Part shown: positions 1-16,097 of the stretch, in pieces
How the letters are laid out: each line of letters opens with the position of its first letter
Position numbering within the stretch: the first letter of the stretch is position 1
DNA from: a virus
Taxonomy: Duplodnaviria; Heunggongvirae; Uroviricota; Caudoviricetes
Virus record (IMG/VR): IMGVR_UViG_2703718798_000010
Span: 1-20,193 of that record
Length of the DNA stretch: 20,193 nucleotides
Reading direction: 5' to 3' (one strand)
Made by a program: the position numbers and the translations under genes
The notes under the pieces: model-generated
Told to the model about the DNA's origin: nothing
The model's database searches: none
The model's input: only the letters and a program-made list of their open reading frames with translations

Positions 1-558
1 TTAAAGTCGCATCAGCCTTTCTACCAGTTGCTCCTTACGGGTAACGATCCAGCCGTGCTGCTCCAGATAAAACTTAAAACGCTCCAGAGTACACACCATC
101 GCATCGGCAGGCACTTTTTCCGTGAACTCGACCTGTCCGTAGTTATTGAAATGGATCAGTAATGCGCATCCGTCGTTTTCGATGGGGGATTTTTGTGTGG
201 CTGGTGGTTGTTTCTGGCTGAAATAACTGTCTTCCAGTTTTTCGAAAACTTCCCATGCCTGATCTGTTTCGAGCATTTTTGCATGACGGGCAGCCCCGCG
301 TTCTGTCCAGAGAATGAGGGAGCGGGTTTTGGGCGAGATTTGTAACTGACTTATTGTCAGTCGCAAATTTTTAAGCTCTTCGCCCACAACCTTGAAGAAA
401 TGTTTACCTTCAATAAAATGCTCTGAATTGCGCTTATGGTTTTGCTGAATACTATTCACATCCGCACCATAAAGATGCGCCAATAACTCGGTGGTTATGA
501 CAGGAATCTGGTTGTGGGCAATCGGGGAAAGAGTTTCAACAGGAATTTGAGTGGTCAT
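1..558 (-). CDS. ORF6N/KilA-N-like domain protein (phage antirepressor-like); may lie outside the prophage
   Basis: Complete 194-aa ORF, stop at position 1-3; start chosen at internal Met (MTTQIPVETL) preceded by GGAGGG; domain call from recalled family features only. Confidence 0.5.
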   Translation of the reverse strand: MTTQIPVETLSPIAHNQIPVITTELLAHLYGADVNSIQQNHKRNSEHFIEGKHFFKVVGEELKNLRLTISQLQISPKTRSLILWTERGAARHAKMLETDQAWEVFEKLEDSYFSQKQPPATQKSPIENDGCALLIHFNNYGQVEFTEKVPADAMVCTLERFKFYLEQHGWIVTRKEQLVERLMRL

Positions 559-720
559 ATTGACGCCCTCCGGTTGATGTTTCAAAACATCACCACCTTC
601 AGGTTCCTAATCATCGGGTGGCGAGACGTACAGGGTTAGGAACTACCGGATCAACCAACCGGCGAGCCTTTCGGCTCCCCCATACGCCCCACCATTATTC
701 AGATGTGCGTGCGCTTACGA

Positions 721-747
721 CAATAAAAAACACGCTCGCGGCGTGTT
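721..747 (-). terminator. Rho-independent terminator downstream of int
   Basis: 7-bp stem AACACGC/GCGTGTT (729-735/741-747) with A-run 722-730 on + strand, giving a U-tract after the hairpin on the minus-strand transcript. Confidence 0.5.
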
Positions 748-834
748 CTGTCGCGGTTGAATATCCGGGGTTCCTAATCCCGACGCCAGATTTTGCTGGC
801 GTGCGCAGACTATAATCCCGGACGGTTATTTTTG

Positions 835-1953
835 TCAAATAACCAACTTAACCCATTCCTGACCCCGAGTATCGTTATAGCGATCGGTGGTTGCCTGGAC
901 TTTATGTCCTAGTAATGTTTTTGTATCGATACCCTGTGCACGGTACAGCCGTTCTGATAGAGAGCGTTGTTCATGAAATGTTGGCGGAGTTTTTCCTGCT
1001 GGTGGAATTATCCCAGCCAGATCCCGTGCTTTGGCAAAGTAGTCGCTCAGGTTGTCTTTACTCATCGGCTTCGGTTGTTTCTGGTGCCGACTATGGATTA
1101 GATATGGACTTAATATTCTGTCTCGGCACCCATCAATAACTTCTTTTAACGTTATCCCAATGGCATCACAGCGTAGTGTAAGCGGTAACGCCAGACGCAT
1201 TCCGGTTTTTCCCTGGGTGATATGCAAGTGTTCGTTCCACACATCTGAAAAACGCATGTGGCAAATGTCATCACGGCGCTGACCAGTAACAATCGCAAGA
1301 AGCATTGCGTTACGGATAAAGTGTTTTTCAGGCGTTGCATTGTAAATTTTTTGCCAGTCTTCCATGGTGAGCCTGGCTCTGGTTACTTTAGGGATCGGTT
1401 TACGGGTAGCCTCCGGAGGATTCCATCCAGGAGGAACTTCCCCTGCATGCTGTGCTTCTTTATAAATATCAACCCATAATCCACGATTTACTCTCGCTGT
1501 GCTGACCATGTCTTTATCCAGCCACTCATCCAGTATTAATGCAAAGTCTCTTACTTCCAGTTCTTTCAATGGGTGGTTTCCCAGACGGGAAACCAGGTAT
1601 GCAGCCATTCGGGTTTTTTCTTTGTGAGTTGTAGCTGCAATATCTCCATTTTTCAGTCGCGTGTCCTGTATTTTCAGATATCGATCAACCCATGCCTTTA
1701 ATCTGATACCCCGACGTTTTGTTGCTGACGGACTTTCATCAATTTTGCGCATGAAATATTCAGCTTCTGCTGCAGCTATTCGCTGATTGGCTGTGGAAGC
1801 GATTTTTTCTGCCTTACCTTTGTCTGTTCCGAGTCCGTGAAATTTTCCAGTCACAGGATTTTTATACTGGTAGTAAACTCTGCCAGTTCTGCGATCAAAC
1901 TTTTCGTAAAGACCGGCTACGTCAGTGCTGTTTTTTCGTGGCCTCGGTGACAT
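835..1953 (-). CDS. int: Tyrosine recombinase, lambda-family integrase
   Basis: 372-aa ORF; C-terminus PTFHEQRSLSERLY...LLGHKVQATTDRYNDTRGQEW matches my recollection of the lambda Int catalytic C-terminus including the Tyr. Confidence 0.9.
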   Translation of the reverse strand: MSPRPRKNSTDVAGLYEKFDRRTGRVYYQYKNPVTGKFHGLGTDKGKAEKIASTANQRIAAAEAEYFMRKIDESPSATKRRGIRLKAWVDRYLKIQDTRLKNGDIAATTHKEKTRMAAYLVSRLGNHPLKELEVRDFALILDEWLDKDMVSTARVNRGLWVDIYKEAQHAGEVPPGWNPPEATRKPIPKVTRARLTMEDWQKIYNATPEKHFIRNAMLLAIVTGQRRDDICHMRFSDVWNEHLHITQGKTGMRLALPLTLRCDAIGITLKEVIDGCRDRILSPYLIHSRHQKQPKPMSKDNLSDYFAKARDLAGIIPPAGKTPPTFHEQRSLSERLYRAQGIDTKTLLGHKVQATTDRYNDTRGQEWVKLVI

Positions 1954-2197
1954 GAGTTAAAATCTCCTTCAGTGCATCATCATCGCCAGTATGAATTTCC
2001 GGCGCAATTCCCGTTTCACCAGGCCCAACAAATACTGCTCGGCGATCTATCAGCCAACGCCCACGAATTTTTTGTGGTCTTGGAACGATGTATCCTAGTT
2101 TTCCGTATTTCACCAGGGTAGTGTTTGTTATTGGGAGACTGAACCGCTTAGGTTTCCACTCGTCGAGCGTAATCAGGTACTGTTCGCTCATGACCAT
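1922..2197 (-). CDS. xis: Excisionase-like protein
   Basis: Small ORF overlapping the int start as in lambda; ITLDEW motif resembles lambda Xis LTLQEW; start at internal Met with GGAG upstream (alternative start 2191). Confidence 0.5.
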   Translation of the reverse strand: MVMSEQYLITLDEWKPKRFSLPITNTTLVKYGKLGYIVPRPQKIRGRWLIDRRAVFVGPGETGIAPEIHTGDDDALKEILTHVTEATKKQH

Positions 2198-2252: not shown

Positions 2253-4796
2253 TTAAAAATCAGCCTGATTCGGGAACAGTTTTTGCCAGATAGCTGAAAC
2301 GTATTTTGCCTGGTAACGGGCGTCATCAAGTGCATTATGGCGCTCACCTTCGAATGGAATAGCCGTTCTGGCATCGAAGTCTATGGCTTTCCCCAGCTCA
2401 ACGATTGTGCGTACATCGCGATCGTTGTAGTAACGCCACGGGCAGGGGATCCCCTGCCGTTCGTATGAACGGCGCAAAATCGTGTTGTCGAAGTTGGCTC
2501 CATTTCCCCAGACCTGAACAAAAAATTCACCGGAGTTTTCGTCGATAAATTCCCGCAATTGTAACAGTGCATCATCTAACGGGATTTCATCGGTCATAAT
2601 GGCAGATTGCGCTTCGCGTGATTGCTTAAGCCACCATTTAATGGTGTCCCGATCAATGACTCCGCCAGCAGTTTCCAGATCGATAGTCTTACTAAATTCC
2701 GGTCCCATATCTCCGGTTTGCGGATCGAAAAATATTGCACCTATTGAGATGATCGGGGCATCAGGATTTTTTCCCATGGTTTCAAGGTCGATCATTAGAT
2801 GGTCACACGTCCTGCTGGTGGATGTGATTTCACGATGACCGTTCACCTTAATTAAGAGATTGGCTGTCTCGCCTGTTTCATTATTGCCATTGGCATGTTG
2901 ATCGCCTTCGGTGCACTCCTTGTTCGGGAGTCCGGCACTTTCCATTTCCTCCGGATCTTTTTCCCGGGCTTCATCCTGGCTTTCTTCGTTGAATGTCTCC
3001 TGGTATGTTGCGTCGCCCATCACCGCGCCACAGTCAGGACAGTTGCCGCCGCCGGTCTGACCGCAGGCTGTGCAGACTTTTTCCGGTTCCTGTTGCGCTA
3101 CTGGTTCAGGCTGTTTCGTTTCTGGCTCGTTTTGTTGCGCATTTGGACTGTGTTGTTCCGCTTTATGGCCTTTCTGTTCCGTTTCTTGCTGGTTATGGTT
3201 CACCGAATCGCGGGTTTCAATCCCCTTCACCCATTTTGGATCATTCGGGTCGCTAATCCCTTCAACAAATTCTCCGTGAGAAGCAGCCAGTAATTTATCT
3301 GCATCGACAGGATTTTTGGGTGGAATGTTTTTCCTGGCTTCATAGAGTTCTGCACGCAGTTTCTGATATTTCGCATCAACAGAATTTATCTGTGGCTGAG
3401 CATCCATCGACTGCGTGTCCTGATTATGTTCAGTTGTATCCGGTTCCACTGCTTCAGTCGTTGCCTGTTCATCTGCCATTGCGCCAGATGGCTGCGGTTT
3501 TTCTTCATCATCCTGTTTTCCTTCTTTTGTTACACGCTGCGGGATAGGGGCAGAGGAGCGACCGCAGGCAATATCCACGATTTCCGGATAAGGGTTGGCA
3601 TGATCGGTTTCGGTCAGTACTTTGTTCAGATATTCGGTAACACGGTGGGGAGTAGCCTCGATACCAATTGGTGCTTCTTTCACGGACGCAACTACTATCG
3701 CGCGGGAATAATCCAGGTGACCAGGCATGGCGATGAATTTGTCACGAAAAACAGAAAAGGGCGGCTTATTCTCTGAAACGATTTCTTCAATGCGTTTGGC
3801 GTGTGCCGGATGTGGATTGTAAATATCGATGTCCATTGAACGGGCCAGAACGCCAGCGGCAACGTCACGTTCCACTGACGCATCATCGTGGACAAAACCT
3901 TCACCGCGATCGGTAAGAATTCCTCCGCCAGCATTAGCGCCGGACGGGGTGCGATTGATTTCAGATACGCAATTTCCCTTTGCCCACTCTTTTGTCAACA
4001 GCCCCTGATCAAGGTAGTCAGTCTTCATCCAGGTGGAAATGAACTTGTCGAATTCTGCCGGGCTGATACGGCGTGTTGTTGCGTGAGTGAATGCCTTTTC
4101 CACCGAATGCGCCAGTCTTCCAAGATGATGGTTTGTCAGCTTATCCAGCTCAGGATGCGAACGTACTGCAGTAAGCAGGCTCTGTATGTTTCCATCTTCC
4201 ATATCCATTTCGATGCGGATCACGTCCTTGCGTTGTTCTGGTGTGGCGTGATGTTTGTATTTCTCGTCGAACTCCTGACCAAAGAAGTAGAGGTGCAGGA
4301 AGCGATGGGTAAGACTCAGGGTGGAGACGGGGATTTCACATTCAGGGCAGTCATCGTTGCTGTCCGGGGATTCGCTTTTATCTGCGTTCTCTGTCTGAGA
4401 GTCACTTTGTTCATCGCAGTCACGGCTGACACCTGTAACAGCTTCGCCGCTGGTATTGTCAGTGCTGGCTGGTTTGTCCTGAACTGAGGGGGAAGGCGCT
4501 ATAAATATCATTGTGATGCCATCTTCTCCGCCTTTTTCATAGCGGTTGCAGAATTCGGTATCAAACACACCTTCAGGCGGCAGGTCATTAACAATGGGCA
4601 AATTCACGCGAACAGGTTTTTTGAAATCCTCTTCGTCAAATCCAGCATCGTCCATTGCGACAACACCCCGTGATATTGCAACCGATAATTTTTTTGCTGT
4701 GCGCCAGTAAAAACCGCCTTTAATCCCAAGGCGTTTTCTGACTTTGTCATTTTTGGCTTCGTAATACAGTGCAATTTCTTCTTTATCAGTGCTCAT
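2253..4796 (-). CDS. RecE-like (exonuclease VIII-like) protein with a DnaQ-like DEDDh 3'-5' exonuclease C-terminal domain
   Basis: 847-aa ORF with GAGG RBS; N-terminal and central regions resemble Rac RecE as I recall it (GLLTKEW.KGN...[43 protein letters not shown]); C-terminal ~190 aa carry DEDDh motifs ([27 protein letters not shown]). Confidence 0.8.
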
Positions 4797-4888: not shown

Positions 4889-5083
4889 TTATCCAGCCGG
4901 TATTTCGTTATTCAGGTACAGCGATACTTTGTTTAACGGGAGACATTCACCGGAAATTTTTTGCTCGTCTCTTGCCTGATGGCAGGATTCTTTACTGGCA
5001 TAAATTCCGGTAATCACATTCTGTGATTCACCCGTTATAAGAAAAACCGTCATCACCAGTGCAAATGCTGAAGTCATTGACAT
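4889..5083 (-). CDS. Hypothetical small protein with hydrophobic N-terminus (early-left operon)
   Basis: 64-aa ORF; start overlaps the stop of the upstream ORF (ATGTCAATGA), suggesting translational coupling. Confidence 0.4.
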   Translation of the reverse strand: MSMTSAFALVMTVFLITGESQNVITGIYASKESCHQARDEQKISGECLPLNKVSLYLNNEIPAG

Positions 5084-5262
5084 TCTCCGAAAATACCAAG
5101 TTCAAGAAGGGCAATTCTGGAGAGTATGGAATTATCATTGAGAAGATAAGGCTCATATTTTCTCATCTTAATGGCATCTTCAGTAAACTCCCGGTTACTG
5201 AGCAGAATACCAATATCAAAACACCCTTCAGACGTATTAACGTTTGGTAGTGACGTTTCCAT
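5074..5262 (-). CDS. Hypothetical small protein (early-left operon)
   Basis: 62-aa ORF on the early-left strand, coupled to the downstream small ORF. Confidence 0.4.
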   Translation of the reverse strand: METSLPNVNTSEGCFDIGILLSNREFTEDAIKMRKYEPYLLNDNSILSRIALLELGIFGECQ

Positions 5263-5651
5263 TATCGCGTCCTCAACAATGAATTTTGTTGATGCGGCGC
5301 CTGGTGCCTCCAGGTGACGTTAACCAGTTAACAATTAACGTCGGAATACAGAAGGATGCCCGTTGCGCCCCGTAAAATACCACTTTACGGTTTTAACTGT
5401 TCCGCGTGCGCATAGCCGCATTCACCGCATCACAAAATTCACTTTAAAAAGGGCGGACATCAGTCAGCAACAAACCGATGCCGCCAATGGGTACACCACG
5501 AGGTTGCACTGGCTACACAACCGGAAGCGCACGGTCGAAGAAATTTAACGACAAGACTTATATGCAAAGAAACCTCTCCGTGCGCTTTCGTGTTATGCCA
5601 TGACTTTTCAGGGTACATTAACCTGTGGAAACCTGTTTTTACTGGCGCTAA

Positions 5652-5983: not shown

Positions 5984-6013
5984 AATCTACAATTAAAAAC
6001 TGTTTTGTGTCAA
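5984..6013 (-). promoter_or_regulatory. Candidate leftward early promoter (pL-like)
   Basis: Minus-strand TTGACA (6013-6008) lies in the spacer of the operator palindrome; candidate -10 TAGATT 18 bp downstream (5989-5984). Confidence 0.4.
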
Positions 6014-6027
6014 CAGTTTTTAATTGT
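5989..6027. promoter_or_regulatory. Operator-like palindrome (OL-like)
   Basis: Perfect 16-bp inverted repeat ACAATTAAAAACTGTT / AACAGTTTTTAATTGT with 7-bp spacer; same half-site as the palindrome at 7027-7061. Confidence 0.55.
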
Positions 6028-6037
6028 TGTGTTGGGC

Positions 6038-6064
6038 AAAAAAAACTCCCTCGAATGAGGGAGT
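6038..6064 (-). terminator. Rho-independent terminator ending the repressor/TA transcript
   Basis: 8-bp stem ACTCCCTC/GAGGGAGT with GAAT loop; A8 run on + strand gives a U-tract on the minus-strand RNA. Confidence 0.7.
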
Positions 6065-6080: not shown

Positions 6081-6368
6081 TCAGATAGGGAAGGGAAATT
6101 GTCGGCGGGCATGCACAATATTTGCAATTTCAATGCTTGAAGCTGCTACTCGGTACAAAACGATATAATTAGGGTGAACCACAATTTCCCGCAAACCGGA
6201 TACTCGATCACTTGGCGGATATAGATATGGATGCTCAGAGAGGGCTAAAACAGACGTTTCAATCCGTATTTTTAGTCTGCGTGCTGCAGGAATATTTTCC
6301 TTAGCAATATAGGCTACGATCTGACGGAAATCATCGCGAGCAGATGGTAGCCACAAAATGGGTAACAT
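6081..6368 (-). CDS. Type II toxin, RelE/ParE family
   Basis: 95-aa ORF; start overlaps the antitoxin stop (TAATG); family assignment from overall resemblance to ParE-like toxins. Confidence 0.7.
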   Translation of the reverse strand: MLPILWLPSARDDFRQIVAYIAKENIPAARRLKIRIETSVLALSEHPYLYPPSDRVSGLREIVVHPNYIVLYRVAASSIEIANIVHARRQFPFPI

Positions 6369-6559
6369 TACTCGCTCCTGTTAGTTACAGCAATTTGAGC
6401 AATAAGATTCTCCATTTCAGCCATTACCTCATCATGTGGAATTGAGGGACGAGGGTCTGCAAGGCTTGACGCCACTTTAGCGCGTAACCATTCGTTGTAA
6501 CTGTTTTCTTGTTCGGTAGTTTCGAATTCTGAAACTATCGGAGAAAGGGCTGTACTCAT
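6368..6559 (-). CDS. Putative antitoxin partner of the ParE/RelE-family toxin
   Basis: 63-aa acidic ORF immediately upstream and coupled to the toxin; GAGGAG RBS 7 nt before ATG; family not identified. Confidence 0.55.
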   Translation of the reverse strand: MSTALSPIVSEFETTEQENSYNEWLRAKVASSLADPRPSIPHDEVMAEMENLIAQIAVTNRSE

Positions 6560-7847: not shown

Positions 7848-8885
7848 ATGGCTAATGCCTGGCTCAGATTGTGGCATGACATGCCAAATGACCCCAAGTG
7901 GCGAACGATTGCCAGGGTATCAGGACAGCCAATCGCAACAGTGATGGCAGTGTATATCCACCTTCTGGTGAGCGCGTCACGAAATGTCACGACATGTCAC
8001 GGCGTGTCACTACGTGGTCACATTGATGTCACGACGGAAGATTTAGCAAGTGCGCTTGATGTGACGGAAGACGTAATTGATTCAATTTTGCATGCAATGC
8101 AGGGGCGGGTTCTGGATGGTGACCTTATTTCCGGATGGGAAAAACGTCAGGTGCTGAAAGAGGACAATGGTAACGTTTCGCAAACGGCAAAATCCCCGGC
8201 AGAGCGCAAGAGAGCGCAGCGGGAGCGCGAAAAGCTGCGGAAATATGATGCTGATTGTCACGATGAGTCACGACGTGTCACGCATCTGTCACGACAAGTC
8301 ACGACAGATAAAGATACAGATACAGAATTAAACCCCACACATAACGCGCGCATGCGCGAGAGTGCTCCAACCGGTGAGTCGCATGGTGCGCCGTTGCAGA
8401 CAGCCGAACCTGAATACCTGGACGGCCTGAGCGAACCGATCGGGAAATTTTCGATGACTACTGTCTGGCAGCCGTCGTCGGATTTTCGACAACGGGCAGC
8501 AGTGTGGGGTATGGCTCTGCCTGAGCCGGAATTTACACCTGCAGAGCTTGCCGCATTCCGGGATTACTGGATGGCGGAGGGGAAGGTTTTCACACAGGTT
8601 CAGTGGGAGCAGAAATTTGCCCGCCACGTGCAGCACGTCAGGACACAGGTAAAACCAGTCAGCAAGGGGGTAAGCCATGCAGCATCAGGTGGCACGGCAT
8701 CACGGGCAGTTCAGGAAATCCGGGCAGCACGCGAACAGTGGGAACGAGACAACGGATTTATCAGCAACGGAAATGGCCTGGAAGCTGTGGGAGCTTATGG
8801 GGGAGGTGTATTCGAACCGCTGGACCCAGAAGAACGGGGCCGCACCTTCGAAGCTCTGGATTGCCCAGATTGGCGCGATGACTGA
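7848..8885 (+). CDS. Replication initiator, O-like; 3' end uncertain
   Basis: ATG at 7848 after GAGGTGA; two iteron arrays lie inside the reading frame as in lambda O; last ~209 nt overlap the next gene. Confidence 0.65.
   Translation: MANAWLRLWHDMPNDPKWRTIARVSGQPIATVMAVYIHLLVSASRNVTTCHGVSLRGHIDVTTEDLASALDVTEDVIDSILHAMQGRVLDGDLISGWEKRQVLKEDNGNVSQTAKSPAERKRAQREREKLRKYDADCHDESRRVTHLSRQVTTDKDTDTELNPTHNARMRESAPTGESHGAPLQTAEPEYLDGLSEPIGKFSMTTVWQPSSDFRQRAAVWGMALPEPEFTPAELAAFRDYWMAEGKVFTQVQWEQKFARHVQHVRTQVKPVSKGVSHAASGGTASRAVQEIRAAREQWERDNGFISNGNGLEAVGAYGGGVFEPLDPEERGRTFEALDCPDWRDD
7976..8032. repeat. Iteron array 1: six GTCAC(G) repeats at 10-11 bp periodicity
   Basis: GTCAC at 7976, 7986, 7996, 8006, 8017, 8028. 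Confidence 0.7.
8257..8302. repeat. Iteron array 2: five GTCACG repeats at 10-11 bp periodicity, followed by an AT-rich tract
   Basis: GTCAC at 8257, 8267, 8277, 8288, 8298; AT-rich GATACAGATACAGAATTAAA follows. Confidence 0.7.
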
Positions 8886-12583: not shown

Positions 12584-12968
12584 AAGCGTTCGCCGGGATT
12601 AACACCAAAGGAGGGAATGTGTCGGATGATATCTCACTGGCAATGGAAGGTGCGCTGGCTGTTATTGCTGTTGTGGGTGTTTACTGCCTGGTTGTGTTTT
12701 TGATGGATCGACTAGGGAACTGAATTCATTACGATATGGGAATTCCCATATCGGGTAAAAACGGTTTGCGGTAAAGCGAGAGTTAAGTAGAATTGCTGCG
12801 GGTGCTTGAGGCTGTCTGCCTCGGGCATGCCACCGTAAGGCAGACAGATAAAAGCCCCAGTTAACATTATGCGTCTTGCAGGACGCTTAACATTAATCTG
12901 AGGCCAATTTCATGCTAGTCACATGTAGGTTAGCCTCTTACACGCCGAAAGGCAAGGAGAAGCAGGCT

Positions 12969-13124
12969 ATGAAGCAGCAAAAGGCGATGTTAGTCGCCCT
13001 GATCGTCATCTGTATTACCGTCATTGTGACGGCACTGGTAACGAGGAAAGACCTCTGCGAGGTACGAATCCGAACCGGCCAGACGGAGGTCACTGTCTTC
13101 ACAGCTTACGAACCTGAGGAGTAA
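12969..13124 (+). CDS. hok: Hok/Gef-family type I toxin; in-frame mok-like extension from 12912
   Basis: MKQQKAMLVALIVICITVIVTALVTRKDLCEVRIRTGQTEVTVFTAYEPEE closely matches HokC/Gef as I recall it; the 70-aa upstream-extended frame resembles MokC. Confidence 0.8.
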   Translation: MKQQKAMLVALIVICITVIVTALVTRKDLCEVRIRTGQTEVTVFTAYEPEE

Positions 13125-15888: not shown

Positions 15889-16097
15889 TGCTGAAACAGC
15901 AGGATATGACCGAAACCGCCAGAGTGGTGTTTAATGAATTAAGTGCCACCGAACCGGCGACAGTCGGGGAGATTGCGCAGAATACTTACCTTTCACGTGA
16001 ACGCTGCCAGTTANNNNNNNNNNNNNNNNNNNNNNNNNNNNNNNNNNGCAAAAGCAGAATGAGCCTATCAGAGACAGGCTTAATGATCCATGCTTAG
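15889..16097 (+). CDS. Small putative winged-helix protein, interrupted by the assembly gap
   Basis: ATG at 15889; frame continuity across the N-run cannot be verified. Confidence 0.3.
16014..16047. other. Assembly gap (34 N)
   Basis: Run of N in the sequence. Confidence 1.

Follow-up and report, generated by a model that had tools for sequence, protein, structure and literature searches.

The 20,193-nucleotide stretch of viral DNA analysed here (positions 1 to 20,193 of IMG/VR record IMGVR_UViG_2703718798_000010, assigned to the Caudoviricetes; hereafter the window) encodes on its minus strand an 847-amino-acid exonuclease in which the N-terminal and central regions of RecE, the exodeoxyribonuclease VIII of the Rac prophage (K-12 b1350), are followed by a nuclease domain of another type, a DEDDh domain related to DexA (exonuclease A) of phage T4. 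We consider it probable that this protein is a DexA-like 3′-5′ DNA exonuclease that came to sit on the RecE scaffold by an exchange at a conserved hinge and that works without an annealase. An earlier note, made from the letters of the window alone, had described the open reading frame (ORF), its likeness to the N-terminal and central regions of Rac RecE, the DEDDh motifs in its last ~190 residues where a PD-(D/E)XK nuclease would stand in RecE, the xis and int genes next downstream, and the lack of a RecT-like annealase, and each of these observations was borne out. The gene and its parts, all on the minus strand, are as follows.

2253..4796 (including the stop codon), minus strand: exonuclease gene, RecE-type scaffold plus DEDDh head, 847 amino acids (ORF list; identical annotated coding sequence in NZ_CP015240 and other RefSeq genomes)
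2850..4625, minus strand: stretch homologous to Rac RecE, residues 58-649 against RecE 50-591 (BLASTP, 56% identity)
4209..4631, minus strand: Exonuc_VIII domain (PF06630), residues 56-196 (Pfam E=1.1e-12, 48.7 bits, cutoff 25)
2850..3305, minus strand: conserved hinge, residues 498-649 (alignment of the window protein, three phage versions and Rac RecE)
3030..3074, minus strand: CxxC-x7-CxxC motif, C575/C578/C586/C589 (all four Cys invariant in the same five-sequence alignment, Rac RecE included)
2286..2801, minus strand: DEDDh (DexA / Rv2179c-like) 3′-5′ exonuclease domain, residues 666-837 (PF16473, predicted fold, profile)
2781..2789, minus strand: Exo I motif, D670-x-E672 (invariant with T4 DexA)
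2487..2489, minus strand: Exo II Asp, D770 (invariant with T4 DexA and among homologues)
2322..2339, minus strand: Exo III motif, H820-x4-D825 (invariant with T4 DexA and among homologues)

The N-terminal Exonuc_VIII domain, the central region and the four-cysteine (Cys4) hinge are common to the window protein and Rac RecE, with an overall identity that rises far higher from about residue 260 on, and no significant BLASTP alignment was found between the two proteins past residue 649 (RecE 591). Scored against the NCBIfam RecE equivalog model NF007259, residues 1-649 match profile positions 1-602 of 877; with the last third of the model left unmatched, the score is 871.9 bits where the cutoff is 1269. 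At the nucleotide level, homology to recE covers window positions 2869-4027 at 80% and ends at about codon 643. Rac RecE itself has a DUF3799/PDDEXK match at its residues 615-850, whereas a Pfam scan of the 847-amino-acid protein gave no match to a PD-(D/E)XK or DUF3799 family, so that the C-terminal PD-(D/E)XK 5′-3′ nuclease of Rac RecE is wholly replaced here by the DEDDh domain. A 2023 review places the RecE nuclease domain at residues 564-866 and describes the N-terminal domain as of unknown function (PMC11611040); the head junction, at about residue 643-649 of the window protein, falls after the start of the nuclease domain as delimited in that review.

Profile searches, a check proposed in the earlier note, placed NF007259 and PF06630 on the N-terminal part and PF16473 (Rv2179c-like 3′-5′ exonuclease) on residues 666-837, the latter with E=2e-67 and 226.7 bits against a cutoff of 27, over profile positions 2-177 of 177. 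Within this head, the sequence MIDLETMG contains D670 and E672, VWGNGANFD contains D770, and a third motif contains H820 and D825 (codons checked). All five are the same throughout an alignment that includes T4 DexA and homologues from enterobacteria; in a set of 50 homologues, D770, H820 and D825 never vary, and conservation is at least 90% at D670 and E672. Structurally, a model of residues 649-847 built with a homologue alignment reached a predicted local distance difference test score (pLDDT) of 86.5 and a predicted template modelling score of 0.83, and with this head model as the query the best solved structure in Foldseek was T4 DexA (8KEL, E=1.6e-11, template modelling score 0.72), followed by RNase T, a DnaQ domain, REXO2 and Orn, at probability 1.00. 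All 50 fold matches listed were DEDDh-type enzymes, with no PD-(D/E)XK protein among them. T4 DexA was also the closest solved structure by head sequence (E=1.5e-6), and a profile of the clade searched against the PDB returned DexA as the sole significant solved-structure relative (E=1.3e-15), with no chain named Rv2179c at E≤1. The full DEDDh active site is thus present on a DexA-like fold. DexA (8KEL, 8KEN) shares the same five catalytic residues and is the nearest solved structure by both sequence and fold, but it is a standalone protein of 227 amino acids from a lytic phage, carries extra loops, and is 21-26% identical to the head. Since T4 DexA is the closest characterised relative, we infer from homology that the head would act as a 3′-5′ exonuclease on DNA 3′ ends.

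Evolutionarily, the hinge together with the Glu-rich stretch that comes after it (residues 600-665) is the probable site of head exchange. Across the five aligned sequences, the hinge (about residues 498-649) is nearly invariant, the N-termini are mosaic and the C-terminal heads are mutually exclusive; the Cys4 motif within the hinge is possibly a zinc ribbon and would then bind metal. The nucleotide sequence of the window gene is itself a patchwork, matching phage vB_EcoS-689R5 at ~75% at its 5′ end, Rac recE at 80% in the middle, and phage Tritos at 92% from the hinge (3305) on. Among its closest relatives are the exonucleases of 812-823 amino acids encoded by Qin-like prophages, mEp460, Tritos and vB_EcoS-689R5, which share the hinge and the DEDDh head at ~90% amino-acid identity over residues 498-847. 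The mEp460/Tritos/ydfE type differs in its N-terminal third, another mosaic variant whose alignment to the window protein is poor up to about residue 260. A 26-residue acidic insertion ending in a CPEC motif (about residues 129-154 in the alignment; window 4329-4406, minus strand, about residues 131-156) was seen in the window protein only, among the five sequences aligned, and is missing even from the closely related vB_EcoS-689R5 copy.

A search with residues 1-649 against 1.84 billion representative proteins returned only 224 matches, and the scaffold family is therefore small. Among the best 150 of these 224 relatives, 15 carry the DEDDh head and 20 a RecE-type head. Of 80 species-level DEDDh loci, 31 are scaffold fusions (641-851 amino acids), found in Escherichia, Enterobacter, Citrobacter, Kluyvera, Klebsiella, Pluralibacter, Buttiauxella and other genera, and the rest are mostly standalone proteins of ~180-300 amino acids. 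Eight scaffold relatives (P0246, P0265, P0308, P0321, P0328, P0330, P0358 and P0365) carry neither nuclease head and belong to phrog_2489 or phrog_7838, both labelled ‘exonuclease’. Their common C-terminal tail (e.g., about residues 540-740 of P0265) has the Rad52-like motifs GTSIN..YM.M.ATE.FGP.G.GWG and DGEA.KKSLTDA.KKALS.LGF, and Rad52_Rad22 was the best Pfam match for both tails tested, at E=0.0014 and 0.16 (19.0 bits, under the cutoff of 20.3). An hhalign comparison of the tail with human Rad52 gave a plausible register at a level below significance (E=0.037, probability 1.4%), and the Rad52-like tail had no sequence match in the PDB. The RecE scaffold may thus bear a third, still unproven head, a fused Rad52-like annealase. 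Of the scaffold tails left unassigned, the largest group has the look of a diverged PD-(D/E)XK domain by eye and by its PHROG labels; a small hidden Markov model built from that group gave no significant match to the RecE head.

Head type and the presence of an annealase went together in every case examined. The RecE-type head was annotated together with recT in all five of the Escherichia coli (E. coli) records listed, and Klebsiella phage 5 LV-2017 encodes a scaffold plus RecE-type protein with RecT immediately downstream. RecT was absent beside the DEDDh head in the window, in a 100%-identical locus, in three Escherichia phage records, in Citrobacter phage Chris1 and in E. coli PSJ-07, and at none of the 80 species-level DEDDh loci did tblastn detect, within 7 kb, a RecT of the Rac or Gifsy type or a nuclease of the RecE type. 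In the window, xis and int follow the exonuclease gene directly, and the ORFs scanned, from int to the antiterminator gene Q, gave no match to the RecT, Erf or Rad52 families. The same dicB-ydfD-exonuclease-xis-int order is found in Qin-like and mEp460-type loci, which are likewise without recT. A Pfam census of the 104 ORFs flanking 27 fusion loci recovered chiefly Phage_integrase (26), Rrf2 regulators (14) and excisionase families (13), with no annealase family among the 17 families matched; neighbours of the standalone copies included integrase (22), DNA methyltransferase families (12) and single-stranded DNA-binding protein (SSB; 4), and no annealase family was present among the 25 listed of their 59 families. 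Resection in the 3′-5′ direction leaves 5′ tails, which suit neither the loading of RecA nor the coupling of exonuclease to annealase known from Red and RecET. With no phage annealase, the protein would not be a single-strand-annealing recombinase of RecET or Red type, and because the predicted polarity would leave 5′ tails with no partner to load, RecET-style single-strand-annealing recombination by this protein is unlikely. As a separate observation on these neighbourhoods, the 14 ORFs of the Rrf2 (IscR-like) family lie at fusion loci outside Escherichia (L014-L070), and in Citrobacter phage Chris1 an Rrf2-type gene (L010, 4428-4799) stands directly upstream of the exonuclease, in the slot held by dicB-ydfD in E. 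coli.

The architecture is not rare. The exact gene, at 99% identity or more, occurs in 14 complete E. coli genomes, where it is annotated ‘exonuclease’ or ‘3′-5′ exonuclease’, and an identical RefSeq coding sequence carries the name ‘exonuclease’ (WP_000102188.1). DEDDh-head DNA (598 bases, at least 80% coverage) was detected in 4065 of 5426 complete E. coli genomes, at 8141 places and up to 7 times per genome, and a 301-base probe spanning the hinge-to-DEDDh junction was found in 3967 of them (73%; 6874 places), more than twice as many genomes as hold the Rac-type PD-(D/E)XK head (1730, 1827 places). Precomputed PF06630 and PF16473 matches were present together in all 120 full-length relatives listed (784-847 amino acids), which NCBI names ‘exonuclease’, ‘3′-5′ exonuclease’ or ‘3′-5′ exoribonuclease’; one exact relative sequence was seen on 989 contigs, and PHROGs contains full-length families of the same architecture, such as phrog_2082. 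Tritos, mEp460 and the partial-genome record vB_EcoS-689R5 encode dicB-ydfD-exonuclease (812-823 amino acids)-xis-int, with the exonuclease often labelled ‘exodeoxyribonuclease VIII’. The sequence, the domain architecture and a broadly correct name are thus already in public databases, and the fusion is the majority form in E. coli. The earlier note's interpretation accordingly divides in two: its account of the anatomy and its suggestion of a different activity on a shared scaffold remain the best reading, but the unusualness that it implied does not survive, as the architecture proved to be the standard annotated form in common prophages (PF06630 plus PF16473, PHROG families, isolated lambdoid phages). 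We are dealing with an abundant phage function, present in about three quarters of complete E. coli genomes, and not with a new kind of system. That the gene is intact and its catalytic residues are kept in isolated phages and across many enterobacterial genera argues for selection on the fusion.

This reading also accounts for a K-12 pseudogene. The Qin gene ydfE (L007, 4079-4999) matches residues 1-255 of an intact 823-amino-acid exonuclease (L008, 3277-5748) at 99% identity; it overlaps IS2E in K-12, and the intact gene lies at the same rspB site in PSJ-07. The operon order of the window matches the Qin order dicB-ydfD-ydfE, with the same layout in PSJ-07 and in the phages. K-12 ydfE is thus a truncated copy, a remnant, of the scaffold-DEDDh exonuclease gene.

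Functionally, we posit a modular nuclease in which a RecE-type N-terminal and central scaffold would lead, through the Cys4 hinge and the Glu-rich stretch, to the DexA-like head, which would strip nucleotides from free 3′-OH ends by Mg-dependent, two-metal catalysis involving D670, E672, D770, H820 and D825, most probably with DNA as its substrate. Being the last gene before xis and int in what appears to be a repressor-controlled early-left (dicB-type) operon, the exonuclease would be made on derepression of the prophage, and its likeliest role would be to trim or degrade DNA 3′ ends, whether of the host, of the phage's own intermediates or of competing DNA; besides trimming ends, it may scavenge DNA or keep competing DNA out. 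Several considerations weigh against this proposal. DEDDh enzymes often act on RNA too, and both Pfam and NCBI name the domain an exoribonuclease. The search for annealases covered Pfam families and, by tblastn, RecT, and a novel or highly diverged annealase could escape it. Early-left expression is suggested by gene order, a promoter-like site and analogy with the Qin dicB operon. A full-length single-sequence AlphaFold model had a mean pLDDT of 34 and was unusable for the fold of the scaffold, and the literature searches turned up no functional, biochemical or genetic study of a scaffold-DEDDh fusion. An annealase from another prophage, such as Rac RecT, might also act in trans.

Among the alternatives, the least improbable, though still unlikely in our estimation, is that the protein is an anti-phage nuclease of the HREX type, selectively degrading the 5-hydroxymethylcytosine (5hmC) DNA of incoming T-even phages and so protecting the lysogen. 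dicB itself has been linked to phage resistance, and there is a precedent within the family: EcD, a standalone E. coli homologue of DexA, reportedly cleaves T4 DNA and protects against T4 (2025; PMC12153337). An EcD-like protein of 189 amino acids, recovered via the published primers and bearing the stated Ala78, is 38% identical to the head (E=2e-37) and falls with it in the PF16473/DexA family, EcD-type proteins being found in E. coli and viral contigs. That EcD might be the window protein itself was considered and rejected, the primer-derived termini and the 189-amino-acid product showing a standalone homologue. EcD lacks the scaffold, however, and at the three positions that the EcD study takes as criteria the head does not agree, the residues proposed to recognise 5hmC not being kept: the positions of DexA W152 and D169 are Tyr790 and Ala804 in the head as against Trp and Glu in the EcD-like protein, and that of the tetramer-forming D90 is Asp742 in the head (kept) as against Ala78, all of these being assignments of moderate certainty because the alignment has only 21-26% identity. 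PADLOC, with just a weak, generic ‘DEDDh, Cas-associated’ match (1.7e-5), does not list the gene as a defence gene, and its operon would be expected to be repressed in a lysogen. We rank below this, as improbable, a 3′-5′ exonuclease acting on RNA that would process or degrade transcripts of the operon (the DicF-like RNA, xis-int mRNA) or host or competitor RNAs. The Pfam domain takes its name from the Mycobacterium tuberculosis exoribonuclease Rv2179c, RNase T, Orn and REXO2 are strong structural matches, and the gene sits just upstream of xis-int and downstream of the DicF-like RNA; other, sequence-distinct DEDDh nucleases of bacterial mobile elements defend against RNA phages (2026 preprint, PMC13344964). 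By sequence, profile and fold, though, the nearest characterised relative is a DNase, DexA. The scaffold otherwise goes with DNA recombination proteins, the place of the DEDDh head is taken in RecE by a DNA nuclease, and standalone relatives of the head adjoin DNA methyltransferases and SSB.

Lower again in our ranking, and quite improbable, is an exonuclease that does serve recombination, resecting ends in cooperation either with a host pathway or with an annealase provided from another locus, for example the RecT of a co-resident Rac prophage. RecE and RecT work together through a specific interaction, and the window protein lacks the RecE nuclease domain; the 5′ tails left by 3′-5′ resection would, as noted, suit neither RecA loading nor annealase coupling, and an annealase was never adjacent, either at the 80 loci or in the 27-locus census. 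Yet the operon slot, the scaffold and the hinge are all common to RecE, the same prophage encodes a RusA resolvase, the possible Rad52-like head on some scaffold relatives ties the scaffold to recombination, and a passage of the EcD study describes DexA as having a role in intron homing (PMC12153337). Finally, the gene could be a decaying, non-functional mosaic produced by illegitimate recombination in a defective prophage, in keeping with the high mosaicism of lambdoid early regions and with the K-12 copy ydfE, a pseudogene overlapping IS2E; we find this very improbable, as the 847-amino-acid frame is intact, the catalytic residues are conserved among 50 homologues, and isolated phages as well as many genera, 30-60% diverged, have the same architecture.

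Returning to the favoured reading, in which a DexA-like DNA exonuclease works from the RecE scaffold without an annealase, its main consequence would be for annotation: the label ‘exodeoxyribonuclease VIII’ in phage records implies RecET-type recombination and is misleading, and to see that the RecE scaffold mostly bears a nuclease of predicted opposite polarity and has no annealase beside it would put right a common practice in annotation. The favoured reading also draws attention to what the N-terminal region of RecE may do. Much more speculatively, and as an idea that we think doubtful, this region might be a platform for swappable DNA-end heads (PD-(D/E)XK with RecT, DEDDh without an annealase, and possibly a Rad52-like head), with the DEDDh version performing an annealase-independent task at the same cellular target. 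If so, the DEDDh version might block host or rival-phage recombination or replication intermediates.

From its gene content around the exonuclease, the window is the int-proximal half of a lambdoid prophage, with an early-left operon in the layout of the Qin ‘dicB operon’. The position of the exonuclease gene, in a leftward early operon upstream of xis and int, is comparable to that of Rac recE, but the window differs from the Rac locus in having no overlapping recT and no ralR or rcbA. The neighbouring features are the following.

835..1953, minus strand: lambda-type tyrosine integrase (Arm-DNA-bind_1 plus Phage_integrase)
1922..2197 (start M60 = 2197 or M62 = 2191), minus strand: excisionase (Pfam Exc, phrog_629; PGAP on the identical locus)
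4889..5083, minus strand: ydfD-like DUF1482 gene, directly upstream of the exonuclease (PF07358 E=4e-15; same position as ydfD in Qin and the phages)
5074..5262, minus strand: dicB homologue (62% identity to K-12 DicB, E=9e-22)
5451..5499, minus strand: DicF-like RNA, sub-threshold (RF00039, 29 bits against a gathering score of 48, E=4e-4)

The gap between the exonuclease and xis is 55 bp, as the earlier note had it, with the excisionase start at 2197, and 61 bp with the start at 2191 that PGAP uses in the identical locus. Upstream of the exonuclease on the same strand there is also a DUF1391 gene. DicF was not called in the window at the Rfam gathering score, and the DicF-like RNA is possibly dicF in diverged form. 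Immediately upstream of dicB, at 5285-5439 on the minus strand, there is in addition a partial STnc100-like match. A sigma-70-like promoter (TTGACA-18-TAGATT) overlaps a 16-pair inverted repeat (ACAATTAAAAACTGTTGACACAAAACAGTTTTTAATTGT) at 5984-6027 on the minus strand, and this site is a candidate early-left promoter with operator for the exonuclease operon. A hairpin resembling a terminator was seen at 6045-6064, and a PaaA2-ParE toxin-antitoxin pair (6081-6559, minus strand) lies between the CI-like repressor gene and the early-left operon.

The rightward genes encode YdaS/YdaT-like regulators, replication proteins with DnaT and lambda-P domains, Ea22 and a dATP/dGTP pyrophosphohydrolase, and further right come hok/sok, DUF968, RusA, Q and a DNA methylase. 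The hok/sok-type locus (12800-13124, plus strand), in a nin-like region, combines a sok RNA scoring 116.9 bits with a 70-amino-acid Hok/Gef ORF. Past the antiterminator Q (16090-17989, plus strand), the DNA methylase is accompanied by three tRNA genes (17189-17434) and a full-length STnc100 small RNA (17777-17989), and an ORF of 660 amino acids (18211-20193, plus strand) follows. We take this region to resemble the Q-to-late-gene interval of Stx-type phages; no stx-sized ORF was present in it. At the other end of the window, beyond the integrase, IsrK and a C4 antisense RNA with a1/b1 targets (614-815, minus strand) adjoin an ORF6N-domain antirepressor-like gene (1-585, minus strand). This cluster looks like a c4-ant immunity module of the P1/P7 type, which suggests a second mobile element or a moron abutting the prophage.

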